From Gemmatimonadota bacterium (GTDB taxonomy: Bacteria > Latescibacterota > UBA2968), in NCBI GenBank assembly GCA_002727195.1, contig PBWH01000005.1:529285-593284 (forward strand): a DNA stretch of 64,000 bases, given 5' to 3'. The position numbers were made by a program, and so were the translations under genes. Below are positions 7,141-60,717 of the stretch, in pieces; within the stretch, counting starts at the first letter, position 1; the number at the start of each line of letters is the position of its first letter. The notes beneath the pieces were generated by a model, which saw nothing but the letters and a program-made list of their open reading frames with translations, was not told the origin of the DNA and did not search any database.

Positions 7141-7160
7141 CTGAAGACAGAACCCGACCG

Positions 7161-43153: not shown

Positions 43154-43292
43154 GGTGTGTGTCCTCAATGGGGGAGGGGACATCGCCGTCGGCACTGTCC
43201 CTTGTTCCGAGCCCAAGAATAATAGGGGTCGACCCGGCCTGTGGCAAGACAAAATTCCCCTTTTTGCGGCCTGCCGCAGGCAGGTCAGGCGT

Positions 43293-43321
43293 TTGACAAA
43301 CTCAAGAAATTACATTAAGTT
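43293..43321 (+). promoter_or_regulatory. Putative sigma70-type promoter for the ParA/GT9 genes
   Basis: TTGACA (43293-43298), a 17-nt spacer, then TAAGTT (43316-43321), about 58 nt upstream of the ATG at 43380. It sits in a relatively AT-rich divergent intergenic region. Confidence 0.35.
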
Positions 43322-43379
43322 ATGGTCGCTTTTGGGTGCCCACACCTCATCCCTCTCAGAGCGGTAGACCATTCGCTAA

Positions 43380-44405
43380 ATGTTCGGACCCGATCCCAAA
43401 GATTCTGCTACGATTCTCCTCGATAACTTTAGCCTGGAGAAACGCACCTGGGCTGTTGCGGGAGGTAAAGGGGGAACCGGCAAGACTGTCCTGACATCCA
43501 ACCTCGGCGTCGGCCTGGCCATCCTCGGCTACAAGGTCATCCTGATCGATGCCGACCTGGGTGGCGCCGACCTGCATCTCTCCTTCGGGATGCCCGTCCC
43601 CAAGCGAAACCTCAACGACTTCCTGAGCGGCAGAGTCGAATCCCTGGAAGACGTGATCCTGCCGACCCCCAGCGCCAATCTCAGCATCATTTGCGGCGGA
43701 AGTGAGCTGATCGGGCTCGCCAACCTGCCCCACCAGCGAAAAGAAAAGCTCAAGCGCCACATCAACAACCTAGATGCCGACTTCATCCTCGTCGATCTCG
43801 GGGCCGGCACCGCTTACAATACTCTCGACTTCTTCGTCATCTCCAACGAGGGTGTGATCGTCTGCAACCCGGAGCCCCAGGCCAAGATCGACGCCTACGC
43901 CTTCGTCAAGAACGCGGTCTACAGGCGGCTGCTCCAGAATTTCGGACGCAACACCATCCTCAAGGACATCATCCTGAAGTTCGGCAACAGCGGACAGCGA
44001 GCGACAAAGATCCGCAACCTGATCGAGATGCTGGGCAACCACATGCCGGAATTCGGGGACAAAGCGCAGACGCTGGTCGATGACTTCCGGCCCAAGCTCA
44101 TCATGAACAAGGTCCGGAAGAAGACTCAGCTGGAGGACGCCGAGCGGTTCGTTTACCTGGTCCGGGAATACCTGAGCGTCGAAATGGAGTATCTGGGCCA
44201 CATCGAGCACGACGAACGGGTCGTGGATGCCTGCGAAAACATGCGGCCCTTCCTGCTCGAGCAGCCGAATTCCAAGGTCTCCCTCAGCATCTATAACATC
44301 CTGTTCAACATGGGGGTGACCGACCGCCAGCTCCGCTACGACCGAACGTCCTACAAGAAGATGTCGAAGGGCGTGCGACTCGAGTCCAAGCTCTGGAAAG
44401 ACTGA
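43380..44405 (+). CDS. ParA/MinD-family P-loop ATPase
   Basis: Deviant Walker A AVAGGKGGTGKT, then ILIDADLGGADL and Walker B FILVDLGAG. An ~80-aa C-terminal extension ends in a basic, amphipathic-looking tail (KKMSKGVRLESKLWKD). Confidence 0.8.
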   Translation: MFGPDPKDSATILLDNFSLEKRTWAVAGGKGGTGKTVLTSNLGVGLAILGYKVILIDADLGGADLHLSFGMPVPKRNLNDFLSGRVESLEDVILPTPSANLSIICGGSELIGLANLPHQRKEKLKRHINNLDADFILVDLGAGTAYNTLDFFVISNEGVIVCNPEPQAKIDAYAFVKNAVYRRLLQNFGRNTILKDIILKFGNSGQRATKIRNLIEMLGNHMPEFGDKAQTLVDDFRPKLIMNKVRKKTQLEDAERFVYLVREYLSVEMEYLGHIEHDERVVDACENMRPFLLEQPNSKVSLSIYNILFNMGVTDRQLRYDRTSYKKMSKGVRLESKLWKD

Positions 44406-44407
44406 AA

Positions 44408-45696: not shown

Positions 45697-48600
45697 ATGT
45701 GCACCAACTGGGCACGTCGCCTGAACAGTTTGTATCGGCAGGGTCTGGCCGCCTTTGTCCTGGCGTTCACAGCAGTTGTTGGAGAGGCGGAAGCACAAGG
45801 ATTTCCTGTCCAATTGTTAGGAGCTGCTAGGGCCTCAGCTGACGTCCAGCTGAATTCTGGCGATCGGACGCTTTCAGACACGAGGACGATCGAGGCCAAG
45901 GTTGGAGACACGGTCGTGATCGAGTACTTCGTCACGCGGTGGGACGGGCTTCAGGGCCTCAATGCTCAGTTCACCTTCAGCGATATCTCGATGCTTAGCG
46001 GAGAACCGAAACTCAGCGCCGGAGCACCCTTCTCGACCCCAATTCCCACTTTGTCCGGCAACACATTTGCGACAAACCAGGTTTCGTTCAGCGGGCCTGG
46101 GTCTGAACCCCTAGACGGATCCTTGAAGTATATGGGTCACATGACCATCGAGCTTTCGGGGTTGTTCACGAGCCTGACCGTCACCTTCGACCAAGTAACC
46201 CTTGGAGAAAAGGTCCTCCAGGTTGGGACCGAGCTGATCATCGCCGACCCTAGTGCTCTTCCCAAAACATTCGGGGCAGACCTGAATAAGGACTACGGGA
46301 ACCAGCGCGTTCTGGATGGTCGCGCGAACCCAGGGGGCCGGTTCGGCGTCCAGACCTTTGCCGGTGGCCTGAGCGATGTCGACGAGGTCGAAATTCGAGT
46401 CGAGGTCGACCCGACACAGATCGATGGTGCGGCGACTGGTTTCATCCCCAGCGAGCACTTCACAGTCGTCCCGCAGGAAGCCGGTGGCCTACCCCCGGGA
46501 AGAGGATCCAGCCTTGAGAATGTCTATGTCGACATTCAGAGAGCAGGAGACAATAACCATACACCTGGTGGGTGGACTATCGAACAACGGGGCGGGTCCA
46601 GTGTTGCAATCGAGATCTTCGCATCGGGCTACGAGGGCGCAAACGGCGCCACCGCCAAGTTCCGAGTGAGCGATCCATCGGCGATCGCAGGTCTCGAACA
46701 CACGGGATCGCCACACTTCAGCATCGCCTCCCTCGGACCACCGGAGTTGGAGGGCAATATCCTGACTACCAACGTTGGGAATCTCGCCGCACCCAATGAC
46801 GCCCCCTTCCAGCTGGTCAACACATTGATCCTCCAGCTTGCGCCCGATTTCAATGGCCTGGTGCTTGAACTGATCGAAGTCGAATTCCCGCCCTCCAGCC
46901 TCTTCGGCAACCCGAATGCCGTCCTGACCGTGACGCCCCCGGGTGGCGTGAAAGGCTCCCTTGTTGGCTTCAGCGGCAACAATATCACGTTACGATTGGC
47001 CGCTCAGATGCCCGTCAGCGGGAACGTGGGACTTGGGGCTTTCGTCTTTAAGACGACCCCCGAGTTTGAGCAGGCCAACCTGACCTTCCGTCAGGTGACC
47101 TTCATTGCCGGAGAGACGACAGCAGGCCTCGAGCCGGACCTGACGGTCTCCTTACGGTCGAACCTGAGCAACGCGCCTACGGTCAGCGAGCCCCCGGTCA
47201 TCACGTCTGTTACTGACACACGGGCTCAGATTCGCTGGGCCACGAACCGAGCGGGTACTGGTAAGGTGCTTTATGGAACCAGCCCGGGGAATCTCGACCA
47301 GGAAGCAATCGTGTCTCAATTGGGACGCGTCCATCAGGTCGCTATCACCGGACTGACTGCCGGAACTCGCTATTTCCTCAAAGTTACCACGACGGACATC
47401 AAAGGGAACGAGTCTAATGCCTTCCCTGAGCGCCCGCTCATTCTGGTGACCCGCCGCAAGCCAGACACTGCGCCACCAAGAGTGGTGCGCGGTCCGGCCG
47501 CGGTCGGTATCACCCGCGAGGCTGCCAACATCCTGGTAGAGCTGGATGAAGCAGCGACCGTGGACGTCCTTTATGGCAACTCGGATACGAATCTCGATCA
47601 AACAATAAGCAGTACGGAAGAGAAGCGTCTGCACGAGCTCAAACTCGCCGGACTGACGCCAGGCGCCACCGTCTTCTTCAAGGCACGGGCGACCGATCAG
47701 GCCGGGAACGTTCGCGAGACAGCTAAAATCCGTCAGTTCACGCTCCGGTCTGTAGCCGACGCATCTGCTCCGCTTATCGTAGGACGCCCCACGATTCTAG
47801 GCGCCACGTTCAACGCTGCGGTGATCCGCTGGTTGACGACCGAGCCCAGTTCCAGCCTAGTCCGTTTCGGGTTCGAAGGGGAGTTCTCGGACTCTTCGGA
47901 ATCCAGCGAACTGGTGAACGAGCATACGATCGCTCTGTCGAACCTTTTGGCTGACACTCTCTACTCTTATCAGGTTGAGTCTGTGGACGCCTCGGGTAAC
48001 GAGATCACCAGCCCCACCTTCACATTCCGCACGCGTGCTGGCGAAGACACGATTCCGCCGCGCATCACACGCCCGCCGGTGGTTGCACGGCAAAGTGAAT
48101 CTGAAGCAGTAATCGTGTTCGAAACCAACGAGCCGGCAACGGTTACGCTCCAGGTGGATACCGATATCGCGGTCGCATCTGACACCACCGGCATCCTCGG
48201 CGACACCTATTCCACGACGGATGCCACAAAGCGACAAGAAGTTTTGATCACCAACCTAGACGCAGCGACGGAGTATTTCTACCGCATTGCCGTCACAGAC
48301 TTGACAGGAAACGGTCCGACATATAACCGCGGCCAAAAATCGTTCGTTACACGGCTTGCGGCAGATACCGTAGCGCCGATTTTGGTCAGGCGCCCTGTCG
48401 CACTCGGGATCTCAAAAGAGGGTGCGAGCATCAACTGGAAGGCAGACGAACCGCACTCGGCAATCATTCGTTACCGCGCGGCTGCCGCGAAAAAGCAGTC
48501 GGCTGGTGATTACGATGAGTTCGTTGAGGATCTCGACTTGTCTCGCAAGCACGCGGTCCCTATTTCCGGACTGCAGGCAGGTACACGCTACGAGTATGAG

Positions 48601-51600
48601 GTCGAGACGATCGACGCAGAGGGGAACTCCAGCACCACGACAAACCTCTCCTTCGTCACCCGACGCGGTGCCGACACAGACGCACCGACCATTGTACGTG
48701 GCCCGCTCGTCACGAACATCACAGCCAGTTCAGCCACAGTCCGGTGGGAGACTGATGAACCTTCAGATACTCGCGTAAGTTGGGGGTCGTCTATCGATTA
48801 CGGTGAGACGATCGAAAAGGCCGAAGGTGTTCGTTTCCACTCGGTCACACTGACAGACCTCGATGCCGGTACCGAGTATCACTATGCCGTAGGCTCTGCC
48901 GACCTCGCGGGTAACGCGGTCACGACAGATGCGAACGGGACCGTCGTCGGGTTGAGTGAGGACCATACCTTCCGGACCCGCTCGACCGAGGACGAGTCAC
49001 CCCCGGTGATCACAGAGGGTCCGCTCGCAGAAATCAAGAACACCCTTGTAATCCTGAAATGGAAAACGGACGAACTCTCCACCTCACGCGTCACAATCGG
49101 TGTTAAACCAGGATCCGATGATGCCGCCGTGGAAGGGACTCCGGTCTTCGGTGAGAATTCGCAGATCGTATTCGACGACAACGACCTAACTCGGAAACAC
49201 ATCGTGACCGTGACCGGACTGAAACCGGGACTGGGCTACCTCTTCCAAGTTAGTTCAACCGATGCAGCGGGGAATACGGTGAAGGGCACGGACCCAACGG
49301 TGAATAAGAAGATCCAGCCGCCAGGAGGGTTCGGCAGCTTCACGACCACGACCGAAGCGGACACGCAGTTCCCGGTGATCACCGGGGGTCCTACAATCGT
49401 AGCCTCCACATCCAGCAGCCTCACGATCGAGTGGGAGACCGATGAAAGTGCGAACGGCACGATCGATTTCGGTACGGCCTCCGACGCGCTTGAGGAACAG
49501 GAAGTCACCGGAGCAAACGATACATCGCACCGCCTAACTCTCACCAAGCTGGCTGCGGGAACGACCTACTCTTACCAGATCGGATCGACGGACGCGTCGG
49601 GGAATGGAGCCACCAAGAGTGCGGTGGTCTCAGGCACGACAGCGGCTTCCGAGGATCTGACCGCACCGGTGATCAACGGAACGCCGTCGGTCATCTACGT
49701 CAACGATCGCCAGGCGACGATCAGTTGGGGAACTAACGAAGCAGCGGACTCCGAGGTCGCATTCGGAACTTCGGCAGAAGAGCTGCTCGAAACACGGAAC
49801 GACTCGGAGTTCAACACGAATCACAGTATCACACTTACGAACCTGAGCGCCGGAACGACGTACTACTACACGGTCAACTCGACCGATCAGAGCAACAACG
49901 GTCCGGCGACCAGTTCCGTTCAGGAGTTCACGACCGAATCGGCGCCGGATACGACGCCGCCGGTCTCGTCAGACATCTCCTCGGCCACAACTTCGACCGA
50001 GGCCCTGATCACCTGGAATACCGACGAGCTGTCCGACAGCGCGGTTCGCTACGGCACGACATCGGGAAGCCTCGACTTCAACACAGGCGACTCGGAAGAC
50101 GTGACGGACCACGCGATTACGCTCACCAACCTGACGCCTGCGACGACATACTCCTTCACGGTGGAGTCGATCGACCGAGCGGGTAACCAGGGTGCGGCGA
50201 GTTCCGAGCTCCAATTCACTACGCTGGCCGATGGTGCGTCACCGACGCTCGCAGCCCCCACTGGTGTGGCGGCGACAGCCGGTAACGCTGCGGTCCAGTT
50301 GAGCTGGACGGCCAGCAGTTCCGGTGGTGTGGTCGGTGTGGTGGTGGAGCGCTCAGCCGATAGTGGTGACTTCGCATCCATTGCCACATTGGACAACGTG
50401 ACCACCTACACGGACAACAACGTGGTCAACGGAACGAGCTACAGCTACCGCATCAGCGCGCTGGGACTCAACCAGTCTCAGGGCGATCCATCGACGGCGT
50501 CTGAAGCGGTGACGCCTGCCGCCGGTATCGGGCCCTCGGCTCCGACCCTCGCGATCAAGCAGGGCAACCCGCTCCAGCCGACGTTCGTGATCAATAACAG
50601 CACGCCGCTGAACGATGGTGACGTGCTGAACTACACGTTCCAGCTTTCATCGTCGTCTGACTTCTCCGACGCCCTCAGCCTCGATTCCGGTCTGGGTGAA
50701 GGCGCGGGAACCGGCGTGTCGGATCCGAGCGGAGTCACCGCCTGGACCGTCAGCCGTGAACTGGATGACGGGGTCACCTATCACTACCGGGTCAAGGCCA
50801 GCGACGGCACGTTCGACAGCGACTTCCTGACCGGGTCGTTCACGGTCAACGCCGCCGATCAGCCATTCCCTGGTGATCTGGACAGCGACTTCAATGTCGG
50901 GTTCGGTGACTTCCTGACCTTGATCGCTACGTTCAACTTGAGCTCGGGTAGCGACGGGTTCAACGCCGACGCGGACTTCGACGGAAGCGGTGCAGTCGAC
51001 TTTACAGACTTCCTGTCCTTCGTCGGGGTCTTCGGTAAGCAGTACGTCCAGGGCGACGGCGCCTCGTCCAAACCGGTCGTCATCACCAACGCCTACGGGA
51101 CGGACACCACGACCCGTCTGGAGCTGGTGGGGCGTCCGACATCCAGCGAAGAGGGTGGCGTGCTGATCGTCGAGGTGATGGCGAAGGATGCCGAGAAGAT
51201 GATGGGTACGGGACTCCGCCTGAGCTACGACACGGACGCGCTCGAGTTCGTCGACGCCTACCAGGGCAATAATGGATTGTTCAGCAAGGATGAGCGGAAG
51301 GCCGAGATCTTCGCCACACTCGAACACGACGCCACAGCCGGTGAACTGTTCGTGGCGGGCGCGATCACCGAAGGTGGTGCGGTGTCAGGTGACGGCGTCG
51401 TTTCGCGTCTGCGGTTCGTCCTCAAGACGGACCATCCGCAGGGCGACCTGATCTCGCTGAACGAGGGCCTGATCATCGACGGTGACCTCGTCGCCAACGT
51501 CGCTCAGAACCTGGGTGACCGTCTGGCGCTGGTCCCGGAGGACTTCACGCTGGGTCACAACTTCCCGAACCCGTTCAACCCGGAAACGACGATCCGCTAC

Positions 51601-51828
51601 GCAATTCCGGAAGCGGCTCAGGTCCGGTTGGTGGTCTACAACATCCTCGGACAGGAAGTTGTCAGGCTCGTTGATCGGGATCAGGTGCCCGGATTCTACG
51701 CACTGCGCTGGGACGGGAAGGATTCGTTCGGGCGTGGCGTGGCAAGCGGCGTGTATCTCTACAAGATCCACGCGGTGGGCGAGACGCGACGCTTCGCGCA
51801 GGTCCATAAGATGTTGCTGCTGAAGTAA
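45697..51828 (+). CDS. Giant secreted surface protein: cohesin-like modules, 10 tandem Fn3-like modules, Fn3, dockerin-like segment, cohesin-like module, T9SS-type C-terminal sorting domain
   Basis: The ATG at 45697 is preceded by GGAGG and yields a signal peptide (MCTNWARRLNSLYRQGLAAFVLAFTAVVGEAEAQ). The protein is about 2043 aa. The domain calls come from motifs listed in the sub-features. The GTG-start extension in the track (45514) is not hydrophobic or signal-like and is rejected. Confidence 0.85.
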   Translation: MCTNWARRLNSLYRQGLAAFVLAFTAVVGEAEAQGFPVQLLGAARASADVQLNSGDRTLSDTRTIEAKVGDTVVIEYFVTRWDGLQGLNAQFTFSDISMLSGEPKLSAGAPFSTPIPTLSGNTFATNQVSFSGPGSEPLDGSLKYMGHMTIELSGLFTSLTVTFDQVTLGEKVLQVGTELIIADPSALPKTFGADLNKDYGNQRVLDGRANPGGRFGVQTFAGGLSDVDEVEIRVEVDPTQIDGAATGFIPSEHFTVVPQEAGGLPPGRGSSLENVYVDIQRAGDNNHTPGGWTIEQRGGSSVAIEIFASGYEGANGATAKFRVSDPSAIAGLEHTGSPHFSIASLGPPELEGNILTTNVGNLAAPNDAPFQLVNTLILQLAPDFNGLVLELIEVEFPPSSLFGNPNAVLTVTPPGGVKGSLVGFSGNNITLRLAAQMPVSGNVGLGAFVFKTTPEFEQANLTFRQVTFIAGETTAGLEPDLTVSLRSNLSNAPTVSEPPVITSVTDTRAQIRWATNRAGTGKVLYGTSPGNLDQEAIVSQLGRVHQVAITGLTAGTRYFLKVTTTDIKGNESNAFPERPLILVTRRKPDTAPPRVVRGPAAVGITREAANILVELDEAATVDVLYGNSDTNLDQTISSTEEKRLHELKLAGLTPGATVFFKARATDQAGNVRETAKIRQFTLRSVADASAPLIVGRPTILGATFNAAVIRWLTTEPSSSLVRFGFEGEFSDSSESSELVNEHTIALSNLLADTLYSYQVESVDASGNEITSPTFTFRTRAGEDTIPPRITRPPVVARQSESEAVIVFETNEPATVTLQVDTDIAVASDTTGILGDTYSTTDATKRQEVLITNLDAATEYFYRIAVTDLTGNGPTYNRGQKSFVTRLAADTVAPILVRRPVALGISKEGASINWKADEPHSAIIRYRAAAAKKQSAGDYDEFVEDLDLSRKHAVPISGLQAGTRYEYEVETIDAEGNSSTTTNLSFVTRRGADTDAPTIVRGPLVTNITASSATVRWETDEPSDTRVSWGSSIDYGETIEKAEGVRFHSVTLTDLDAGTEYHYAVGSADLAGNAVTTDANGTVVGLSEDHTFRTRSTEDESPPVITEGPLAEIKNTLVILKWKTDELSTSRVTIGVKPGSDDAAVEGTPVFGENSQIVFDDNDLTRKHIVTVTGLKPGLGYLFQVSSTDAAGNTVKGTDPTVNKKIQPPGGFGSFTTTTEADTQFPVITGGPTIVASTSSSLTIEWETDESANGTIDFGTASDALEEQEVTGANDTSHRLTLTKLAAGTTYSYQIGSTDASGNGATKSAVVSGTTAASEDLTAPVINGTPSVIYVNDRQATISWGTNEAADSEVAFGTSAEELLETRNDSEFNTNHSITLTNLSAGTTYYYTVNSTDQSNNGPATSSVQEFTTESAPDTTPPVSSDISSATTSTEALITWNTDELSDSAVRYGTTSGSLDFNTGDSEDVTDHAITLTNLTPATTYSFTVESIDRAGNQGAASSELQFTTLADGASPTLAAPTGVAATAGNAAVQLSWTASSSGGVVGVVVERSADSGDFASIATLDNVTTYTDNNVVNGTSYSYRISALGLNQSQGDPSTASEAVTPAAGIGPSAPTLAIKQGNPLQPTFVINNSTPLNDGDVLNYTFQLSSSSDFSDALSLDSGLGEGAGTGVSDPSGVTAWTVSRELDDGVTYHYRVKASDGTFDSDFLTGSFTVNAADQPFPGDLDSDFNVGFGDFLTLIATFNLSSGSDGFNADADFDGSGAVDFTDFLSFVGVFGKQYVQGDGASSKPVVITNAYGTDTTTRLELVGRPTSSEEGGVLIVEVMAKDAEKMMGTGLRLSYDTDALEFVDAYQGNNGLFSKDERKAEIFATLEHDATAGELFVAGAITEGGAVSGDGVVSRLRFVLKTDHPQGDLISLNEGLIIDGDLVANVAQNLGDRLALVPEDFTLGHNFPNPFNPETTIRYAIPEAAQVRLVVYNILGQEVVRLVDRDQVPGFYALRWDGKDSFGRGVASGVYLYKIHAVGETRRFAQVHKMLLLK
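47167..50230 (+). repeat. Array of ten tandem ~100-aa Fn3-like modules (coding repeat)
   Basis: Each unit follows the pattern DTxAPxIxxGPxxxxxTxxxAxIxWxTxEPSxSxVxYG......H.v.LtgLxxgTxYxYxvxSxDxxGN....xFxT. The units are diverged at DNA level, and no near-identical copies are seen. Confidence 0.8.
50872..51045 (+). other. Dockerin-like duplicated Ca-binding segment
   Basis: GDLDSDFNVGFGDFLTLIATF plus DADFDGSGAVDFTDFLSFVGVFG form two EF-hand-like D-x-D-x-D loops, each followed by a helix. This is the dockerin type-I pattern. Confidence 0.6.
51109..51483 (+). other. Cohesin-like beta-sandwich module
   Basis: The layout GGVLIVEVMAKDAEKMMGTGLRLSYDTDALEFVDAYQG...GELFVAGAI...GDGVVSRLRFVLK matches the cohesin pattern (v.v.v.a..v..l.g....l.YD...L.f). 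Similar modules appear in the N-terminal ~480 aa (for example AKVGDTVVIEYFVTRWDGLQGLNAQFTFSD). Confidence 0.5.
51541..51825 (+). other. T9SS-type (Por secretion) C-terminal sorting domain
   Basis: LGHNFPNPFNPETTIRYAIPEAAQVRLVVYNILGQEVVRLV...GFYALRWDGKDSFGRGVASGVYLYKIHAVGETRRFAQVHKMLLLK closely follows the TIGR04183-type CTD consensus as I recall it. Confidence 0.8.
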
Positions 51829-51852
51829 CCGCGAAGCACGGAGGTAGACGAG

Positions 51853-51890
51853 AGCCGGTCGGGAAATATTCCCGGCCGGCTTTCTTTTTT
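51853..51890 (+). terminator. Rho-independent terminator after the giant gene
   Basis: gccggtcggg aaatatt cccggccggc forms a 10-bp GC-rich stem with one G-U or mismatch, followed by tttctttttt. Confidence 0.75.
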
Positions 51891-51987: not shown

Positions 51988-52045
51988 TCCGACGCCTGTA
52001 TCGGGCAAGTTTGAGACTGACACTTCCCTTAAGTCGTCGAGGCGC

Positions 52046-55000
52046 ATGACCCTCTTTCCTCCAGCCGGGATCCGACGCACGACTGCGCTCGCTCCCCTCC
52101 TGGCTTCATTCCTGATCGCCGTCTTTGCCGCGCCGGCTCGTGGTCAGACACTGGCCGCATCGCAGCAATTGACCGGCGTTTGGGGTGCATCCACTACGTG
52201 GGCGGATGTCGATGGGGACGGGGATGCCGACCTGCTCCTGACCGGCCTCACCGGTCCTGACGACAACTGTGAACCCGTTAGCCAGCTATATAGAAATGAC
52301 AGCGGTACGCTCGTCGAGCAGGCGACCAGTCTGCCCGGTATCCACCTGGGCGCGGTCGCCTTCGGCGACTACGACGGGGACGGCGACCTGGATCTGGCCC
52401 TGTCCGGAGCAACATCTGACGGGTCAGGAATCCTCACCCTCTACCGGAACAACGGTGGTTCTTTCTCCGAAGACATCAGCCAGTCTGGCCTGCTGTCAGA
52501 GACGCTCCGATATAGCACGCTCGCCTGGGGAGATTATGATGGCGACGGCGACACGGACCTGCTCGCTTCGGGTATGAATGCCGCCGGCAACGCCCGGACG
52601 GTCCTGTTCAACAATGGACGTATCAACGCGGATCGTGTGGGCAGTCCTCTTGGTGGATCCCCGATTCTCACCGAAGACATCCCCAACTCGGAACGAATGA
52701 TCAACCTCAGTCAGGGCAACGCGGCGTGGGGAGACCTGGACGGCGATGGAGACCTGGATCTGGCCGCCACGGGGTATGGCACCGACGGTGGACGCCAGGC
52801 CGCACTCTACATCAATGACCCGCTGGGAACCCTGACGCTGGATACCCGGAACGGCCAGTTGCCGCCACTGTCAGGTGGGGACATCGCCTGGGCGGACTAC
52901 GACGCTGATGGGGACCTGGATCTCGTGCTTTCGGGCTGGAACACCAATTGGGAGGCCACCTTCCAGATCTACACCAACGCTGCCGGAATCCTGAGGGAGG
53001 ACCTCTCTTTCAGCTCCCGGCGCATCGTGGGATCCCTGGCCTGGGGCGACTTCGACAACGATGGCGACCTCGACCTCGCCGCCTCAGGGCAGACGAACGT
53101 ATCCGAGCGACTTTCCTTCATCCTCGTAAATGAGCCTGTGGGGACGCTGACCGAAGACAACGGCCAATCCCTGGCGGGCGCGCGCGGCGGAGATCTCGCC
53201 TGGGCCGACGTCGATGCCGATGGGCACCTCGACCTGGTCATTGCGGGCGAAGTCGATGGCGAGGGACGCGAGACGACCGTCTACCGAAGCCAGGGCGGAT
53301 CCGTCACGAATTCGGTTCCACGGCCTCCGGACCGGCTCGGGAGTCCCTTCGTCACCAGCCTGGGCGTCGCGCTCGACTGGAACGACGGGACGGATGCCGA
53401 GTCCGCATCGACGGCGTTGACCTACAACCTCCGTATCGGCACCTCGCCGGGCGGAAACGACGTGTTCGCTGGATCGGTTCCGGTGGGGACGGGGAACGTC
53501 GGCTCCGCCAAAACGATCAGACTGGCCATACCGCTTGCTCGCGATACCTACTACTGGTCGGTACAGGCCGTAGACCCCGGATATGCCGTCTCGGCTGAGA
53601 GCCAGGAAGAGATCTTCCGCGTTCAGGATCTGGTCAGCTCCGTGCAGAATCTCCGTCCGCTTCGGGAGTCGGGATTCGAGTGGGGAGACTATGACAATGA
53701 CGGCGACCCGGACCTGGTGCTGTTCGGCCGGGACATCGACGGACGCGGCCGGTCGATCCTCTACCGCAACGACGGCGGGATCCTGACCGAGAACGCGAGC
53801 GTCGTGCTCCAGGGCATGCTGAACGGCGATGCGTCCTGGGGTGACTATGACAATGATGGAGACCTCGACCTGGCTCTGGTTGGTCAGGATGCGGGGGAGA
53901 ACCCCTACAGCCACCTCTACCGGAACCGGCTCGAGCTGGGAGACTTCGCGCTGAACATCGCGAACGTCCAGGCACTCGACCAGGTACGGTCCAGCGACGT
54001 GGACTGGGGGGACTACGACAACGATGGGGACCTCGACCTCGCGCTGATGGGACAGGTCATCGGGTCCAGAGTCACCAAGGTCTACCGGAACGACGACGGA
54101 ACGTTCGTCGAAGCCGTCTCGTTGACAGGTGTGGACAACGGAGACCTCGGGTGGGGCGACTACGACGACGACGGAGACCTCGACCTCGCCGTCATCGGTC
54201 AGACCTCCAACGCGTTCGAATCAACCTTGACCGTCTACCGCAACGACCCGGTCGGAACGCTCACCGAAGATACACGGTCTGCCCTATCCGGAGCATTTGC
54301 CGCTGCATTGGCGTGGGGTGACTACGACAGCGATGGCGATCTCGATCTCGGTGTTTCCGGCTTTGACCCGCAGGTTGGTCGGATCACGCGCGTCTACGAA
54401 AACGATGGAACGGGAATCCTTACCGACAGCGGGCAATCTGTTACAGGCGCGGCCGCTTCGGATCTCGATTGGGGCGACTTCGACAACGATGGCGATCTCG
54501 ATCTGGCCGTTCTGGGCAACACGGATGCGGGCCCGATCCTCGAGCTCTACCGAAACGACAACGGCGTCCTGGAAGAAGTGCCGATCGACATCCTTCGCGG
54601 CGTTGACTTCGGATCGCTCGGATGGGCGGACATCGACTCCGACGGTGACCTCGACTTGCTGAGCACCGGCCGCGCATCGGACGACGGCGTGAACTTCACG
54701 CTGACCTCCAGCGCGAACGACAACCTCGAATCTCGCTTCAACCCGAACGCGGCACCGATCCCGCCGGATGGGCTGACCTCCTCTACGGACGGAGCCGATA
54801 TCCAGCTGTCCTGGATGCAGGGGTCGGACGACGGCACATCACCAACGCCCACCGGTGCCCTCACATACGAAATCCGAGTGGGGGACAGCCCTGCGTCGAA
54901 CAATATCCGTTCTGGAGCGGGATCCGTCGAGTTCGGCGCGATCCGAACGACCAGCCTGGTGTTGAGAAACCTGCCGAGCGGGAGCTACAACTGGTCGGCC

Positions 55001-56107
55001 CGAACCATTGACGGGGGTCTTCAGACCTCCGACTGGTCCGGAGAGGAGACATTCATCGTCGACACCGTCAGTCCCGTCATCGACAGCGTTCAGGTGCGGC
55101 CGCGGGTGCTCACCCAGGGTCGCCGGGCATCGGTGGTGGTGGACTTCAACGATGAGCCGGCCGGCATGGACAACGCGGTCTCTCCGCGGGTGACTCTACA
55201 ACTCGCCAATCAGGCGTCCGAGCTCGAGCTTACCCAGCTCAGCTACAGCGGCGATCTCTGGATCGGGGAAGTCGACGTTGAGACCGACGTACCTTCGGGA
55301 AGTTTCGTCGTCCGGGTCTCCGGGGCCGTGGACCTCAAGGGGAACACCATGGAGCCGTTCGAGAGGTCGATCCCTGCGCTGATCGCCCCCGGCGGGGGTG
55401 GCATCGTGGAGAGCCCCGATGGGCTGCTGCGGCTTCGCCTCTCGCCAAACGTGCTGCCGGCTACGTTGTCCGAGAATCCCGATGTACGGATCGATCCCGT
55501 GGTGGTCGGTACAGAACCCTCCGGTGTGACGGCGAGTCACGGCGCCTATGAAATCACATCTGAGCCGGCTCTCACGCTGCGGAAAGCAGCGACCCTTGCA
55601 TTCGACATACCCCAGGGCGCCGCGACAGACCGACTCGCCGTATATCAGCTGAGTGGAACGGCGTGGACCAGGTTGGGAGGAACGGCGGCCGCGATGGTGT
55701 TCCGCGTTCCCGTGACTGAACTCGGGACCTACGGTCTCTTCGAGGACAGCGCTCAGTCGGGTGGTTCGGCAAGCGTGTCCAACATCGACTTCAGTAATCG
55801 CGCGTTCTCTCCACGCGGTGGAGGAGGCGGGCAGGCAGCGGGTCGACCGGCCCCCATTCTCTTACGCACAACCGACATCTCGTTCGACCTGTCCGGCTCT
55901 GCTTCCGTACGGATCGAAATCTACGATCGCTCGGGCCGACTGCAGAACGTGCTGGCCGCAGGCAGACAGATGAACGCCGGACGGAACGTCATAACGTGGG
56001 ACGGGCGCGACGGTGACGGGGATTCCGTTCGAAGTGGACTCTACATCGTTTCGATCGAGGCCGATGGCGAGCGTGAACAGAAGACAGTAGCGGTGGTCAA
56101 TCGATGA
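52046..56107 (+). CDS. Secreted protein with two seven-bladed FG-GAP/VCBS (integrin-alpha-like) beta-propellers, two Fn3-like domains, Ig-like region and FlgD-Ig-like C-terminal domain
   Basis: The ATG at 52046 gives a signal peptide (MTLFPPAGIRRTTALAPLLASFLIAVFAAPARGQ). There are 7 + 7 copies of W[GA]D[YVFLI]D[GND]DGDLDL Ca-loop motifs. Each set is followed by an Fn3-like domain (ALTYNLRIGTSPGGNDV..YYWSVQAVD and ALTYEIRVGDSPASNNI..YNWSARTID). The C-terminus SVRIEIYDRSGRLQNVL...ITWDGRDGDGDSVRSGLYIVSIEA is FlgD-Ig/CTD-like. Confidence 0.85.
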   Translation: MTLFPPAGIRRTTALAPLLASFLIAVFAAPARGQTLAASQQLTGVWGASTTWADVDGDGDADLLLTGLTGPDDNCEPVSQLYRNDSGTLVEQATSLPGIHLGAVAFGDYDGDGDLDLALSGATSDGSGILTLYRNNGGSFSEDISQSGLLSETLRYSTLAWGDYDGDGDTDLLASGMNAAGNARTVLFNNGRINADRVGSPLGGSPILTEDIPNSERMINLSQGNAAWGDLDGDGDLDLAATGYGTDGGRQAALYINDPLGTLTLDTRNGQLPPLSGGDIAWADYDADGDLDLVLSGWNTNWEATFQIYTNAAGILREDLSFSSRRIVGSLAWGDFDNDGDLDLAASGQTNVSERLSFILVNEPVGTLTEDNGQSLAGARGGDLAWADVDADGHLDLVIAGEVDGEGRETTVYRSQGGSVTNSVPRPPDRLGSPFVTSLGVALDWNDGTDAESASTALTYNLRIGTSPGGNDVFAGSVPVGTGNVGSAKTIRLAIPLARDTYYWSVQAVDPGYAVSAESQEEIFRVQDLVSSVQNLRPLRESGFEWGDYDNDGDPDLVLFGRDIDGRGRSILYRNDGGILTENASVVLQGMLNGDASWGDYDNDGDLDLALVGQDAGENPYSHLYRNRLELGDFALNIANVQALDQVRSSDVDWGDYDNDGDLDLALMGQVIGSRVTKVYRNDDGTFVEAVSLTGVDNGDLGWGDYDDDGDLDLAVIGQTSNAFESTLTVYRNDPVGTLTEDTRSALSGAFAAALAWGDYDSDGDLDLGVSGFDPQVGRITRVYENDGTGILTDSGQSVTGAAASDLDWGDFDNDGDLDLAVLGNTDAGPILELYRNDNGVLEEVPIDILRGVDFGSLGWADIDSDGDLDLLSTGRASDDGVNFTLTSSANDNLESRFNPNAAPIPPDGLTSSTDGADIQLSWMQGSDDGTSPTPTGALTYEIRVGDSPASNNIRSGAGSVEFGAIRTTSLVLRNLPSGSYNWSARTIDGGLQTSDWSGEETFIVDTVSPVIDSVQVRPRVLTQGRRASVVVDFNDEPAGMDNAVSPRVTLQLANQASELELTQLSYSGDLWIGEVDVETDVPSGSFVVRVSGAVDLKGNTMEPFERSIPALIAPGGGGIVESPDGLLRLRLSPNVLPATLSENPDVRIDPVVVGTEPSGVTASHGAYEITSEPALTLRKAATLAFDIPQGAATDRLAVYQLSGTAWTRLGGTAAAMVFRVPVTELGTYGLFEDSAQSGGSASVSNIDFSNRAFSPRGGGGGQAAGRPAPILLRTTDISFDLSGSASVRIEIYDRSGRLQNVLAAGRQMNAGRNVITWDGRDGDGDSVRSGLYIVSIEADGEREQKTVAVVNR

Positions 56108-57597
56108 TCAAACGCGCAAGCACCATACTGCACGGCGTATCTGCCGTATTCCTGGCGACGGGACTGGCCTGGGCTCAGCCCAGCTTCACCGATGTCACCT
56201 CGAGTGCGGGTGTGGCCAACTCGGTGCCCTCGACGGGAGCGCCAAGGGTCGGGACGGGCGCGGCGTGGGGCGACTACGACGACGACGGTGATCTCGATCT
56301 GTATGTGACCAATTGGGCGAGCTCCGTGTCGCAGAGCCTGAACAGGCTATACCGGAACAACGGCAACGGGACCTTCTCCGATGTCGCGAGTTCAGCCGGG
56401 ATGGGCAGCGTTGCGCGCAACAGCGTGGCCGCCAACTGGATCGACTACGACAACGATGGCGACCTCGACGTCTACGTCGTCAATTTCTTCGAGCAGGACC
56501 AGCTCTACCAGAACAATGGAAACGGGACCTTTACCCGGGTTACAGGCAGCGCAGACGTGAACGTCATTCGCCAGGGCGACGAAACGAATGCCGCCTGGGG
56601 TGACTACGATGGGGATGGATATCTCGACATCTACGTCTGCAAGCGGCGATTCCGGAACACCCTCTACCACAACAATGGAAACGGGACGTTCTCCGAGGTC
56701 GGCGAGTCCGCAGGTGTCGCCGATAACCGCGATTCAGAGGCTGCTGCGTGGGCGGACTACGACGCCGACGGGGACGTGGACCTCTACGTCGTCAACCGCG
56801 AGCAGAACAACGCGCTCTACAAGAACGACGGGAATGGGAACTTCACTGAAGTGGCCTGCGAGGCGTCTATCGACAACACGGACATCGGCCGGGGTGCGGC
56901 TTGGGTCGACTACGACCTCGACGGAGATCTCGATCTCTACGTCGTGAACGTCGGCGGGAACGCACTCTACCGGAACGATGGCAACGACACGTTCGTAAAC
57001 GTCGCGGACGGAGACATCAAGAACACGGGATCCTCCTGGATCAGCTGGACGAGCTCCTGGGCCGACTACGACACGGACGGAGACCTGGACGTTTTCGTGA
57101 CGAACGGAGCGGAATCGGAATCAGGCCAGGCCAGTGCGCTCCTGACCCAATCCAATGGGACCTTTACTGAGGAAACGGGAACAGGCCTGTCGGCCTCTCC
57201 GACGAACGCGATTGCTTCGGCGGCTGGAGACTACGACGGAGATGGCGACGTCGATCTCTACGTCGTGAACAGCCAATTCCCGAGTTTCGAGGCGTCGACC
57301 CTCTACAGAAACGATTCAGACCCGACAACCTACTTGACCGTGAGGCTACGCCGACAGACGACCGGTGGTGATTTGTCCGCCGATGGGATCGGCCTCAGGG
57401 TGCGTGTGCTCGATGGAGATACGCTGATCGGACACCACGTGATGAGCTCCGCCGAGAATGTCCAGGAAGCAGTGTTCGCCGTTCCGGCCGCTGTCACTGT
57501 CAGGGTCGAGGTTATCGGCCCAACCGGTCGCGTCACGGGATCGGACGTAGAAGTGGGAACTGTTCAACTGACCACCGTCGTGGGACTGACCGATTAG
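56104..57597 (+). CDS. Secreted seven-bladed FG-GAP propeller protein with ASPIC/UnbV-like C-terminus (CRTAC1 family-like)
   Basis: Signal peptide MIKRASTILHGVSAVFLATGLAWAQ and seven WxDYDxDGDLDLYVVN motifs. The C-terminal LYRND....YLTVRLRR...DGIGLRVRV resembles UnbV_ASPIC. ATGA overlap with the upstream gene. Confidence 0.8.
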   Translation: MIKRASTILHGVSAVFLATGLAWAQPSFTDVTSSAGVANSVPSTGAPRVGTGAAWGDYDDDGDLDLYVTNWASSVSQSLNRLYRNNGNGTFSDVASSAGMGSVARNSVAANWIDYDNDGDLDVYVVNFFEQDQLYQNNGNGTFTRVTGSADVNVIRQGDETNAAWGDYDGDGYLDIYVCKRRFRNTLYHNNGNGTFSEVGESAGVADNRDSEAAAWADYDADGDVDLYVVNREQNNALYKNDGNGNFTEVACEASIDNTDIGRGAAWVDYDLDGDLDLYVVNVGGNALYRNDGNDTFVNVADGDIKNTGSSWISWTSSWADYDTDGDLDVFVTNGAESESGQASALLTQSNGTFTEETGTGLSASPTNAIASAAGDYDGDGDVDLYVVNSQFPSFEASTLYRNDSDPTTYLTVRLRRQTTGGDLSADGIGLRVRVLDGDTLIGHHVMSSAENVQEAVFAVPAAVTVRVEVIGPTGRVTGSDVEVGTVQLTTVVGLTD

Positions 57598-60500
57598 ATG
57601 CGCCTGCTCCTGACCATACTACTCTTGATCCCGTGGGCCGTTTCTCCCGCCCACGCGGACCGACCTTCCATGGCAACGACAGCCCGCACGATCGCGCTGG
57701 GCGGAACTGTCACCGCGCTCTCGAACGACGCCTCCACAACCTTCTGGAATCCCTCGGGTGTCGCCACGCTGCAGCGGCAGGAGCTGGTCTTCTCTTACGC
57801 CGACCGGTTCGGACTCGGCCTGAGCAACAGCTACACCAGCTACGTATTCCCGCTTTTCGAGCGCCACGCGGTCGGCGTCGACTGGTTGCGCGAGAGTTTC
57901 GGCGACAACGAACTCGAAGATGCCCTCAACATCATCAACCTCAGCTACGGTATGCAGTTGCACCGGGCATTGTCCCTGGGTGTCGGCTCCAAGGCGGTCT
58001 TCCAGAGCATCGACCTCGACGAGGTGAGCCTGCGCAGTGCAAGCGGCTTCGGCTTCGACCTCGGTCTCGTGCTGACACCGAAGACGAGCCCGTTCGACAG
58101 GCTGAGAGTCGGGCTGACGGTTCAGGACATCGGCGGAACCAAGGTTCGAGACAGCAATACCCAGTTCGAGGAGGAGATCCTCGAGCAGAACATCCGCGGC
58201 GGTATCGCGATCCAGGCGACACGGGACATCACGATCGCGGCGGACGTCGACCAGAACGCGATCCACTTCGGGGCGGAGTACCAGCCGATCGCGTCGCTGA
58301 TCGTACGGGGTGGGCTCAACAAGGCGCTGAGCGAGCCCTCCGGGGGAGACAACTCGCTCGCCTTCGCGCTCGGCTTTGGCCTGAAATACAACTCGATCCA
58401 GCTCGACTACGCTTTCGAGAACCACCCGGTCCTGCCGGCGACACACCACATTACGGCAGCCCTGTCCTACAACGCGTCTGTCATCAGCATCAAGGACGCG
58501 ATCATCCGGCCGGCGCCGATCTTCAAGTCTCTCTACCGGACCTACGAGGCGAGTGAGTTCGCCGACGTCGTCCTCCGGAACTCTTCAGCCGACCCGATGG
58601 ACGTGACCGTCACCATCGAGGTCCCCACGCTGACCGATGCGCCCCACGAAGAGTCGTTCACCGTGCCCGCTCAGACCACTGAGCGATACGGACTGAAGCT
58701 CACGTTCCCACAGGATCTCCTGTCGACCCAACCGTCCTACTACGACAACCTGGTTCAGCCGACCGTCAAGGTCACCTACCAGCAGGGACGACGCGCAAAG
58801 ACGTCGAGCAAGACGCTCAACAGTGTGTATGTCCTCGGTAAAGGGAAGCTCTCCTGGTCGAACCCGCGGAGGATCGCGGCATTCATCACGCCCGAGAGCC
58901 GGACCGTCGACAGCTTTGCCCGTGGGCTCGTGGCTCAGTATGCCGACCAGCTGCGCGACAAGTTCGGCAACAACAACATGGGTAAGGCCGCGCTGATTTT
59001 CGACGCCATCGGGGCGCACGGGCTGCGTTACCAGCAGGATCAGACCACGCCGTATCTCGAGATTTTCGAGGATGACTCGGTATTCGACACGGTCAAGTAT
59101 CCGTATGAGTATCTGGATGCGAAGATCGGCGACTGTGACGACTGTACAGCGCTGTTCTGCTCGATGCTCGAGAACCTGAACATCCCCACCGCCATCCTGG
59201 ACGTCAACGACCCGGAGTATGGCCACATATATATGATGTTCGACAGCGGCATCTCGGTGCAGAACGCCGGTGACTTTTTCCTGAACGAGAAGGAATACGT
59301 CCTCTGGGACAACCGGATCTGGATCCCGGTCGAGACGACGCTGTTCGGCTCCTCCTTCTCGGATGCCTGGCGGAACGGCGCGAAAGAATACTACATCCGG
59401 AAAGAACGCGGCTACATCAACGAGATCCTGGTGTCTGACGCACAGGGGACGTTCCGTCCTGGCGTCGTGCCGGACATCGAGATCGAAGTGCCATCGGCGG
59501 ACAAGATCGCTGAACTCTTCGACCGGGACCTCTCGTTCTTCGATAACCGTCTGGACCGGATCGCCCTCTCGTCTGGCGTGTCGCTCGATTCCGCCGAGGG
59601 TCTGTATGATGCAGGCGCGGCTTACCTGAGGCTGGCGCAGCTGGATCGTGCGGAGACGTCGTTCACCGACGCGATCAAGATGGATCCCGAAATGGCGGAT
59701 GCCTACAACGCGCTCGGCGTGGTAATGACGCGGCAACGCCAGTATGACCAGGCCCTGGAGTTGTTCAACAAGGCACTCGAACTCAATCCGAACGATGCCG
59801 GCTTCCGGATTAACGTCGCCCTGGCCTATCACCTCCAGGGACGGTCCGAGGACGCTGAGCAGGCCTATCAGCTGGCCATCGACACCAACAGCGACTTTGC
59901 CGGCGCGCTCAGTTTCCTCTCTGGCGGCGGAACGGCCGGCGCACAGAAGACGGATCCCCTCAACCGGATCGCCTCGGAAAAGTCATACGAAGATGGTGCC
60001 GCTTTCCTCAGGCTGAACAGGTTGGATCGCGCGACCGAGGCTCTGGACCGAGCCCTGTCACTAAACCCGAACAACGCCGAAGCGTTGAACGCCAAGGGCG
60101 TCATCGCCACGCGTGAACGTCAGTATGACGAGGCCCTCGCGCTGTATCAGCGGGCCGTAAACGTGACGCCGGGGAACGCCGGGTTCCACGCCAACCTGGC
60201 CATTACCTACCATCTGCAGGGTAAGAAGGATCAGGCGATTCAGGCCTACCGCAAAGCGGTCGACCTGGACGACAACTTTGACGGCCAGCTGGACTTCATC
60301 ACCGGCGGGCAACCGATCCAATCGATTGAGATCGCTTCGACGCCCTCGTCAAAAACTGCGGGGCCGCTCCAGAAGATCGCCGCCGAGAAGGCATATGACG
60401 ACGGCGCCGCCTTCCTCAGGCTGGGCCGACTGGATCGGGCTTCGGAGCAGTTCGACCGCGCCCTGTCTCTCAACCCAAACAACGTCGATGCCATGAACGG

Positions 60501-60717
60501 CAAAGGCGTGGCCGCCACCCGGCTACGGAAGTATAACGAAGCCGTCGAGATGTTCAACCGGGCCATTGCCCAGGATCCTGACAATGGCGGATTCCTGATC
60601 AACCTGGCGATCTTGCGTTATCTGCAGGGCGATGGTGACGGGGCCAGGGAGGCCTACGAGAAGGCTGTGATTGCCGATCCAGGCATGGAAGGCCAGTTGG
60701 AGTTTCTCGAAAAATAG
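57598..60717 (+). CDS. Fusion protein: N-terminal outer-membrane beta-barrel (PorV/PorQ- or FadL-like), transglutaminase-like cysteine-protease core, three TPR super-repeats
   Basis: Signal peptide MRLLLTILLLIPWAVSPAHA. The motif TARTIALGGTVTALSNDASTTFWNPSGVA is followed by about 14 amphipathic beta-strands in the first ~290 aa. The transglutaminase-like core is KIGDCDDCTALFCSMLENLNIPTAIL...YGHIYMMF...RIWIPVETT, with the candidate Cys codon at 59134-59136. The ATG comes directly after the upstream TAG. Confidence 0.7.
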   Translation: MRLLLTILLLIPWAVSPAHADRPSMATTARTIALGGTVTALSNDASTTFWNPSGVATLQRQELVFSYADRFGLGLSNSYTSYVFPLFERHAVGVDWLRESFGDNELEDALNIINLSYGMQLHRALSLGVGSKAVFQSIDLDEVSLRSASGFGFDLGLVLTPKTSPFDRLRVGLTVQDIGGTKVRDSNTQFEEEILEQNIRGGIAIQATRDITIAADVDQNAIHFGAEYQPIASLIVRGGLNKALSEPSGGDNSLAFALGFGLKYNSIQLDYAFENHPVLPATHHITAALSYNASVISIKDAIIRPAPIFKSLYRTYEASEFADVVLRNSSADPMDVTVTIEVPTLTDAPHEESFTVPAQTTERYGLKLTFPQDLLSTQPSYYDNLVQPTVKVTYQQGRRAKTSSKTLNSVYVLGKGKLSWSNPRRIAAFITPESRTVDSFARGLVAQYADQLRDKFGNNNMGKAALIFDAIGAHGLRYQQDQTTPYLEIFEDDSVFDTVKYPYEYLDAKIGDCDDCTALFCSMLENLNIPTAILDVNDPEYGHIYMMFDSGISVQNAGDFFLNEKEYVLWDNRIWIPVETTLFGSSFSDAWRNGAKEYYIRKERGYINEILVSDAQGTFRPGVVPDIEIEVPSADKIAELFDRDLSFFDNRLDRIALSSGVSLDSAEGLYDAGAAYLRLAQLDRAETSFTDAIKMDPEMADAYNALGVVMTRQRQYDQALELFNKALELNPNDAGFRINVALAYHLQGRSEDAEQAYQLAIDTNSDFAGALSFLSGGGTAGAQKTDPLNRIASEKSYEDGAAFLRLNRLDRATEALDRALSLNPNNAEALNAKGVIATRERQYDEALALYQRAVNVTPGNAGFHANLAITYHLQGKKDQAIQAYRKAVDLDDNFDGQLDFITGGQPIQSIEIASTPSSKTAGPLQKIAAEKAYDDGAAFLRLGRLDRASEQFDRALSLNPNNVDAMNGKGVAATRLRKYNEAVEMFNRAIAQDPDNGGFLINLAILRYLQGDGDGAREAYEKAVIADPGMEGQLEFLEK
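59591..60714 (+). repeat. Three tandem ~130-aa super-repeats, each of about 3 TPR motifs (coding repeat)
   Basis: The units begin EGLYDAGAAYLRLAQLDRAE, EKSYEDGAAFLRLNRLDRAT and EKAYDDGAAFLRLGRLDRAS. Each ends in a hydrophobic/Gly tail: ALSFLSGG, QLDFITGG, QLEFLEK. Confidence 0.8.

Follow-up and report, generated by a model that had tools for sequence, protein, structure and literature searches.

A PorV/PorQ-family barrel with a putative enzyme-like arm is genetically linked to a CTD-bearing propeller protein and a CHASE2 cyclase outside the Bacteroidota

Which genes of this locus form a unit, and what could that unit do in the cell envelope? The window, the 64,000-nucleotide stretch of Latescibacterota contig PBWH01000005.1 analysed here, carries six co-oriented plus-strand open reading frames (ORFs; g1 to g6) at 43154-60717, the last of which encodes a 1039-amino-acid (aa) fusion protein. 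A preliminary description had listed these six genes largely correctly and had read them as one self-contained module. Across phyla we found a different set instead: a cargo gene with a type IX secretion system (T9SS)-type C-terminal domain (CTD), often g5, the fusion gene g6, and two further genes, g7 and g8. The conserved unit begins with g4 at 52046 and ends with g8 beyond 64000; g1-g3, to its left, are lineage-specific. We read the fusion protein, tentatively and with slightly less than even confidence, as a cargo-dedicated PorV/PorQ-type anchor whose periplasmic arm of enzyme-like and tetratricopeptide repeat (TPR) domains is coupled to cyclic-nucleotide signalling, a function that we infer from sequence, predicted structure and gene neighbourhood. 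The earlier interpretation held only in part: it had drawn the boundaries of the module, and placed the enzyme-like domain, differently. The features of the conserved unit are as follows.

51959-51987, + strand: sigma-70-like promoter candidate for g4-g5-g6 (TTGACT, 17-nt spacer, TAAAAT; 10 of 12 matches)
52046-56107, + strand (maximal ORF from TTG 51899): g4, 1353 aa, secreted double FG-GAP propeller protein
56104-57597, + strand: g5, 497 aa, secreted single FG-GAP propeller protein
57598-60717, + strand: g6, the 1039-aa fusion
57598-58464, + strand: g6 residues 1-289, signal peptide and PorV/PorQ-family (FadL-like) outer-membrane beta-barrel
58465-59577, + strand: g6 residues 290-660, beta-sandwich and putative transglutaminase-fold domain
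59578-60717, + strand: g6 residues 661-1039, three TPR modules of ~115-125 aa each
60955-61452, + strand: g7, 165 aa, small secreted TPR-like protein
61501-61529, + strand: strong terminator 3' of g7 (stem of 12 bp including 9 GC pairs, then TTTTTT)
61628-64000, + strand, cut at the window end: g8, CHASE2 domain, transmembrane helices and class III adenylate/guanylate cyclase

The barrel of g6 is, by profile score, a member of the PorV/PorQ family, that is, a T9SS-type carrier/anchor barrel. Residues 25-287 score 99 bits against the NCBIfam family model NF033709 (cutoff 90), and the distant homologs P0155, P0161 and P0166 reach 100-105 bits. In an AlphaFold2 (AF2) model of residues 1-660 (pLDDT 86.3), residues 61-291 form a barrel with an even strand count, 14-16 by DSSP. 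Foldseek ranks PorV from the SprA translocon first (6h3i_F: E = 8e-12, TMt 0.68, root-mean-square deviation 3.5 Å), with 8gl6_F (PorV), and then TbuX, TodX and FadL, as further matches. The barrel, transglutaminase-like and TPR architecture of the preliminary description therefore stands, and its barrel can now be assigned to a family; structure prediction places the barrel closest to PorV and gives the middle region a transglutaminase fold.

That middle region (residues 290-660) matched no family in a Pfam scan at E ≤ 0.01. At E ≤ 10, only sub-threshold Transglut_core and DUF553 matches appeared, located on the helix that carries the Cys described below; the Transglut_core E-value was 0.021 for the window's g6 and 1.9e-4 for the best homolog, and DUF553 reached 4e-6 in the best homolog. 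Used as a profile against PDB sequences, the alignment of the middle domain returned spurious LpxC matches alone (E ~1). The AF2 model (pLDDT 89.9 for this region) comprises a beta-sandwich and a transglutaminase-like core, for which Foldseek returned TG2 (E = 5.5e-5, probability 0.98-0.99), 3kd4 and 3isr (E from 5e-5 to 6e-4, probability 0.97-0.99). C513, within the motif GDCDD, is invariant across 38 homologs down to 40% identity and opens helix 513-526 of the model; D549 is likewise invariant, and conservation is at least 90% at H543, D559 and E579. The middle region is also the best-conserved part of the protein, with identities of 77, 59, 49 and 44% against 56, 48, 44 and 34% for the barrel. 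We consider it a divergent transglutaminase-fold Cys-His domain and, on its modelled fold, a putative enzyme. The earlier transglutaminase-like call thus has the fold search, the homolog matches and the invariant Cys behind it, although the Pfam cutoff is missed. Like the putative bacterial cysteine proteases 3isr (Cytophaga hutchinsonii) and 3kd4 (Parabacteroides distasonis) and animal TG2/factor XIII, the region has a beta-sandwich followed by a Cys-His core, with the Cys at the N terminus of a helix; it differs from them in its identity of only ~10%, low TM-scores, scores under the Pfam cutoffs and membership of a large unnamed family of its own.

The TPR region scores 178.7 bits with TPR_1, and many other TPR models match it too. 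On which side of the outer membrane these C-terminal domains lie follows from barrel topology. By established beta-barrel topology, the position of a domain after a barrel can be read from the strand number; the even strand count, together with a link of only ~4 residues from the last barrel strand to the next domain, leads us to place the transglutaminase-fold domain and the TPRs in the periplasm. On this modelled topology, the enzyme-like domain would face away from the surface, where a PorU-like enzyme would act. An inverse-autotransporter-like topology, in which the C-terminal domains would be exported through the barrel, was also considered and was rejected on account of the ~4-residue link.

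Proteins with the architecture of g6 fall into 75 clusters (40-100% identity), and those with named hosts belong to Latescibacterota, Handelsmanbacteria and Gemmatimonadota. Databases name them only "tetratricopeptide repeat protein" or "PorV/PorQ family protein". The family of the middle domain is far larger, with 2052 cluster representatives (E ≤ 1e-3; clusters at 50% identity), and is unnamed. In P0147, P0150, P0156, P0174 and P0168 the domain is fused to PorZ-like propellers or NHL/TPR regions, and the family has weak similarity (27-45 bits) to the N terminus of the NCBIfam 'anti-phage protein ProA' model.

We scanned one genome per species for relatives of the middle domain, kept the best 80 of 166 matched stretches as loci, and scored the neighbouring genes in the kept loci by tblastn; the loci evaluable for a given gene are a subset of the 80. 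The loci span Latescibacterota, Gemmatimonadota, KSB1, Handelsmanbacteria, Zixibacteria and Neomarinimicrobiota, six non-Bacteroidota phyla of the Fibrobacterota-Chlorobiota-Bacteroidota (FCB) group. The TPR region of g6 was present in all 80 loci, with a variable number of modules, and the barrel in 77, the remaining three being cut by contig ends. A g4 homolog lay upstream of the fusion gene in every evaluable locus (63/63), and g7 lay downstream of it in 69 of 70. The CHASE2 cyclase gene g8 was found in 67 of the 80 loci, downstream of the fusion in 55 and upstream in 12, while g5 was found in 47 of 63 evaluable loci and is missing from the Marinimicrobia-type cassette. Neighbourhoods at 85, 68, 54, 47 and 40% identity all held one set, consisting of the FG-GAP/FlgD_ig CTD protein, the fusion, the small protein and the CHASE2 cyclase. 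A marine (TARA) locus has the rearranged order g8-g4-g6-g7 and retains the cyclase, and four metagenome-assembled genomes (MAGs) carry two cassettes on separate contigs (L031/L044, L041/L045, L050/L052 and L085/L086). Complete chromosomes with the cassette include OZ240241.1, OZ252228.1, OZ244235.1 and OZ251221.1. One cassette-bearing MAG (L059, CAMAVQ010000018.1) is labelled Gemmatimonas phototrophica, a cultured species; if that label is right, the system would be open to experiment.

In a divergent locus (L090; 33% identity; 4048-15014), a 1971-aa beta-helix/NosD-type cargo with a FlgD_ig CTD replaces the propeller protein and is followed by the fusion, the small protein and the CHASE2 cyclase. 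This cargo and g4 have only their C-terminal 242 aa in common (35% identity, E = 1e-27). Three elements therefore stay constant in this comparison: the C-terminal module of the cargo, the fusion with its PorV-like barrel, and the CHASE2 cyclase. The preliminary description had treated the fusion as the dedicated partner of CTD cargo, and this tie was borne out by the unbroken adjacency to g4 homologs and by the locus with unrelated cargo.

The core cargo of the cassette is g4. It has two seven-bladed FG-GAP propellers of the integrin-alpha-like, Ca-loop type, each followed by an Fn3-like domain; next come Ig-like domains and, at the C terminus, a conserved module of ~235 aa with a FlgD-Ig/T9SS-type CTD at its end. 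Pfam FG-GAP_3 matched 11 stretches. Twelve strict Ca-loop motifs (5 in propeller 1 and 7 in propeller 2), together with two looser ones in propeller 1, give 7 + 7 blades, and FlgD_ig scores 37.8-43.4 bits (cutoff 27); the preliminary assignment of g4 as a double FG-GAP propeller with a FlgD-Ig-like CTD is thereby confirmed. The secreted g5 has seven blades and a ~100-aa C-terminal beta domain. It had been called CRTAC1/ASPIC-like, and the propeller part of that call holds; UnbV_ASPIC is present in the g5 ortholog of locus L002 but was not found by Pfam scan in the window's g5, whose C-terminal 117 aa match no family.

Downstream of the fusion, g7 and g8 lie outside the earlier account, as does the terminator after g7; they are the two most constant partners of the fusion and core parts of the cassette. 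The g7 signal peptide is MKRFLSLALAGFVAASMIATPALA, and the protein's TPR_19 and TPR_6 matches are at E ~1e-3. From 61616 onward the g8 frame stays open up to the end of the window; the gene is absent from the ORF lists because it runs off that end. Its CHASE2 domain scores 141.6 bits (cutoff 26.3) and its Guanylate_cyc domain, which the window end cuts, 43 bits (cutoff 21.9).

How such a set could work is suggested by known T9SS-type pairs. In Porphyromonas gingivalis, the barrel PorQ keeps PorZ, which has two seven-bladed propellers and an uncleaved CTD, at the cell surface, and PorV holds PorU, a Cys-dependent sortase that acts at the surface (PMC8545088). For type B CTD proteins, a cargo-specific PorP/SprF-like barrel gene can adjoin the cargo gene (for example, SprB-SprF), and its product anchors the cargo at the surface (PMC9143113). 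On the precedents of PorZ/PorQ and the type B barrels, we propose g6 as the protein that captures g4 by its C-terminal module. In the reading we favour, g4 (and g3, which has a homologous CTD) would be exported across the outer membrane along a T9SS-type pathway; the dedicated g6 barrel would then capture the cargo C-terminal module on its surface loops, as in PorQ-PorZ or PorV-CTD; and the captured cargo would be displayed as a Ca-dependent adhesin or receptor. In the periplasm, the enzyme-like/TPR arm of g6 would process or scaffold partners, with g7 and possibly g5, and would communicate with the periplasmic CHASE2 domain of the inner-membrane cyclase g8, so that the state of surface assembly or ligand binding would be coupled to cyclic AMP or cyclic GMP synthesis, or the reverse. 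Binding of the CTD by the g6 barrel is indicated only indirectly, by the CTD cargo gene beside it in 63 of 63 loci and by the retention of the module on an unrelated cargo.

The pairing of a cargo with a dedicated PorV-family barrel would follow a known logic; the fusion and the signalling partner would be new. The P. gingivalis attachment complex resembles g4/g6 in combining a PorV/PorQ-family barrel with a CTD-bearing double seven-bladed propeller, as in PorZ/PorQ, and in associating a Cys-dependent enzyme of acyl-transfer type (here putative) with a barrel, as in PorU/PorV. The g4 propellers nevertheless belong to the FG-GAP type and resemble PorZ in architecture only, without a match in sequence, and PorU is gingipain-like, whereas the enzyme-like domain of g6 has a transglutaminase fold, is fused to the C terminus of the barrel and is predicted to be periplasmic. 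The cassette further differs from the P. gingivalis complex in its TPR modules, g7 and CHASE2 cyclase and in its non-Bacteroidota hosts, and g6 fails the PorV and PorQ equivalog models. With SprB-SprF, the cassette has in common a dedicated outer-membrane barrel gene that adjoins the CTD cargo gene; here, by contrast, the barrel is of the PorV/PorQ and not the PorP/SprF type, the CTD is of type A/FlgD-Ig-like type, and large periplasmic domains and a linked cyclase are added.

Several observations weigh against this reading. The scores of g6 are far under the equivalog cutoffs of NF033710 (PorV; 37 versus 250 bits), NF033711 (PorQ; 35 versus 220) and NF052325 (PorV2; 51 versus 325), and its middle domain is below the gathering scores of PF01841 (15.6 versus 23) and PF04473 (14.8 versus 20.5). 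The Foldseek TM-scores of the middle region are low (0.21-0.27), which we attribute to the model comprising two domains. The CTD of g4 is just under the cutoff of TIGR04183 (21.2 versus 23), and g4 gave no match to the PorZ model NF052228 at E ≤ 0.01. The cyclase is tied to the cassette only by gene neighbourhood. In the window, a strong terminator lies between g7 and g8, and in the evaluable locus L052 the 10 kb downstream of the fusion contain no cyclase gene. As the preliminary description had stated, the window has no T9SS core genes, none being found among the larger ORFs scanned. Outside the Bacteroidota, T9SS has been called only possible, in other FCB phyla including Gemmatimonadetes (PMC11285876), and our literature search found no paper linking Latescibacteria with type IX secretion.

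A second reading shifts the emphasis to signalling, making the cassette mainly a trans-envelope device in which a tethered surface propeller acts as receptor, the barrel arm of g6 with g7 reads its state, and CHASE2 passes this on to switch the cyclase. Such a relay has a familiar, purely functional analogy in the TonB-dependent transducers, where, in FecA-FecR-FecI, a barrel with a periplasmic extension relays a surface event to an inner-membrane sensor; g6 could act likewise, although the cassette has no TonB box or plug, anti-sigma factor or extracytoplasmic function sigma factor and would signal through a cyclic nucleotide. Through changes of cargo and gene order, the CHASE2 cyclase remains the most constant partner; the TPR modules and the secreted TPR protein suit a protein-protein relay; and double propellers of the PorZ kind are similar to the periplasmic sensor of BT4663, a hybrid two-component system (PMC8545088). 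A pure relay, however, needs no invariant catalytic-looking Cys and His; the variation of the cargo between propeller and beta-helix fits the display of adhesins or enzymes better than one dedicated ligand; and g8 stands behind a terminator in the window. We regard this sensor reading as unlikely, yet as the best of the alternatives to a cargo-dedicated anchor.

The third reading is that of the preliminary description, in which all six genes form one module, GT9 (glycosyltransferase family 9) makes a glycan acceptor, a ParA-type ATPase positions the machinery, g3 and the propeller proteins make up the matrix, and the fusion is a surface shuttle or sortase-like covalent anchor. It brings in the features to the left of g4.

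43380-44405, + strand: g1, MinD/ParA-like P-loop ATPase, 341 aa
44408-45505, + strand: g2, divergent GT9-like protein (GT-B fold), 365 aa
45566-45591, + strand: terminator-like hairpin in the g2/g3 gap (stem of 10 bp, then CTTTTTTCTA)
45697-51828, + strand (ATG; maximal ORF from GTG 45514): g3, 2043 aa, secreted Fn3/dockerin/cohesin protein with CTD
51850-51884, + strand: strong intrinsic terminator 3' of g3 (stem of 16 bp including 10 GC pairs, then TTTTTT)

The call of g1 as a ParA/MinD ATPase is secure at the family level. Pfam ParA (53.5 bits, cutoff 27.1) and CbiA (52.7, cutoff 25.4) both pass, and the protein carries the deviant Walker A motif GGKGGTGKT; it scores far under the MinD equivalog models (62 versus 212.9) and is not a MinD ortholog. 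Its C-terminal extension of ~170 aa (171 aa scanned) matched no Pfam family. Assignments as a BY-kinase or BcsQ were also considered and were rejected on scores far under the cutoffs. The GT9 call for g2 has a full-length match to TIGR02195 (residues 45-340) in its favour, but both that score (41.7 versus 134.6) and that of Pfam Glyco_transf_9 (PF01075; 16 versus 22 bits) are below cutoff. Many homologs of g2 have precomputed PF01075 matches, and we regard it as a divergent GT9-like fold. These homologs form 62 clusters, nearly all at least 45% identical and assigned to Latescibacteria wherever named.

The giant protein g3 has a signal peptide, a ~500-aa N-terminal region (of which 493 aa matched no family in a Pfam scan), some 12 domains of Fn3/Pur_ac_phosph_N type, one dockerin-like and one cohesin domain, and a CTD. 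The earlier account of a giant 2043-aa cohesin/dockerin/Fn3 protein with a CTD is right in length, Fn3 repeats, cohesin (26.0 bits when the segment is scanned alone, cutoff 24.1) and CTD, which passes both TIGR04183 (T9SS type A; 27.9 versus 23) and FlgD_ig (31.2 versus 27); its dockerin falls just short (Dockerin_1, 20.8 versus 22.9). Pfam Por_Secre_tail is under cutoff for the CTDs of g3 and g4 alike, and the two CTDs are homologous to each other (34% identity, E = 8e-11). Homologs of 2039 and 2065 aa occupy the equivalent position in relatives, but among the 80 loci only about 10 have g3 upstream of g4, from which we conclude that it is an accessory cargo confined to some lineages. At 50800-51560 (g3 residues ~1725-1960), the dockerin-like and cohesin domains stand in one polypeptide directly before the CTD, a pair that could allow self-association into a surface lattice.

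Several results favour the six-gene reading. The order g1-g2-g3-g4 is kept in same-lineage relatives at 48-83% identity, the barrel is of the PorV/PorQ family, and the Cys of the middle domain is invariant. Transglutaminase-fold enzymes, moreover, are established to carry out acyl transfer through a Cys thioester, a chemistry comparable to that of a sortase. The synteny predicted by the preliminary description was thus seen for all six genes within the lineage, but the ParA and GT9 genes are absent beside the cassette in Gemmatimonadota and Marinimicrobia loci, where their place is taken by a NusG paralog and a cytidylyltransferase-like gene and by pilus/secretin genes, respectively. Within the lineage, the block to the left of g1-g2 (def, PHP, MoaE and two unknown proteins) is equally syntenic in the same relatives; the conservation of g1-g3 is therefore what collinear chromosomes would give. 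The genes g1 and g2 are paired in loci L005, L006, L007 and L089, and the most distant g2 homolog (35% identity; L088) stands beside def, with neither ParA nor the giant protein, and is followed by DnaK. A hairpin, outside the earlier account, divides g2 from g3, and a strong terminator divides g3 from g4; g2 itself is under the GT9 cutoffs. Finally, the proposed attachment enzyme would be on the wrong side of the membrane, given that the transglutaminase-like domain is predicted to face the periplasm and PorU acts at the surface. ParA and GT9 thus follow a def/PHP/MoaE housekeeping block and, as lineage-specific neighbours, are probably not parts of the cross-phylum machine. We consider a six-gene module with a surface-acting fusion quite improbable. 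In one Gemmatimonadota MAG (L003, 192-1239), the cytidylyltransferase-like gene and the NusG paralog precede the cassette, and the latter might serve the cargo gene, which is very long, as an operon-specific antiterminator.

Still less probable, in our judgement, is that there is no dedicated system, g6 being a general housekeeping PorV/PorQ paralog with neighbours and cyclase adjacent by ancestry. All components are indeed common domain types in FCB genomes, and part of the wider synteny is mere collinearity, yet the adjacency survives six phyla, rearranged gene order, a swap of cargo and duplication within MAGs, a persistence not expected without selection. The weakest proposal, that the cassette exports and regulates an exopolysaccharide or matrix, with g6 as a TPR and barrel exporter of the PgaA, BcsC or AlgK-AlgE kind, controlled by cyclic nucleotides, and the propellers binding the matrix, can draw on an architecture in which a periplasmic TPR scaffold is joined to an outer-membrane barrel, on weak matches of the g6 TPR region to those of PgaA, BcsC and PrsT and on the nearby GT9-like gene and BcsQ/MinD-like ATPase in this lineage, but is very improbable in view of a barrel of FadL/PorV type and not the PgaA/BcsC/AlgE porin type, a reversed domain order (barrel N-terminal), TPR matches that are generic, and a conserved cassette without polysaccharide synthase, polymerase or flippase.

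Transcription signals in the window agree with much of the earlier account. The junctions that it gave were all confirmed from the sequence: g2 starts 2 nt past the g1 stop (TGA-aa-ATG), g4 and g5 share an ATGA overlap, and g5 and g6 meet at TAG-ATG. The terminator it had placed at 51853 corresponds to the 16-bp-stem terminator of the signal scan. Of its two promoters, the one at 51959 was recovered; at 43293, a perfect TTGACA is paired with a poor -10 (TAAGTT), and the site is for that reason absent from the scan output. Promoter-like sites overall are no commoner than chance (5 versus 4.2 ± 2.3 expected in shuffled sequence), and tRNA and Rfam scans of the window gave no matches.

The rest of the window is ordinary chromosome, with polA, def, ABC exporters and sugar-acid dehydratases. 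Divergent from g1 lie genes for two conserved proteins of 482 aa (40708-42156, - strand) and 312 aa (42314-43252, - strand) without Pfam or NCBIfam match, which are syntenic with def/PHP in all examined relatives, including the most distant (L088). Elsewhere, two rhamnonate-dehydratase-like genes of the enolase superfamily (14385-15569, - strand, and 28063-29232, + strand), together with a sulfatase gene (20140-21519, - strand) and a DgaE-like ammonia lyase gene (17710-18804, - strand), suggest catabolism of sulfated or acidic sugars.

In the literature we found no published description of a cassette of propeller cargo, PorV-like fusion and cyclase, and no full text joining PorV with transglutaminase-like domains, CHASE2 with FG-GAP or T9SS, or PorV with TPR and Latescibacteria. 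To our knowledge, PorV/PorQ barrels have been known only as stand-alone carriers or anchors of the Bacteroidota T9SS. Here a barrel of this family is permanently fused to an enzyme-like domain and TPRs and is genetically locked to a cargo and a CHASE2 cyclase. The phyla that carry the cassette are abundant and mostly uncultured. If the reading as a cargo-dedicated anchor is true, it would show a route by which these phyla display large adhesins and would extend T9SS-type cargo/anchor logic beyond the Bacteroidota. We know of no input signal defined for the CHASE2 sensor domain, and the same reading would provide this domain with a concrete partner set. Should the cassette instead prove to be a signalling device, it would supply the first defined input for CHASE2 and would reveal that outside-in signalling by cyclic nucleotides has made new use of the T9SS-type pairing of CTD and PorV.

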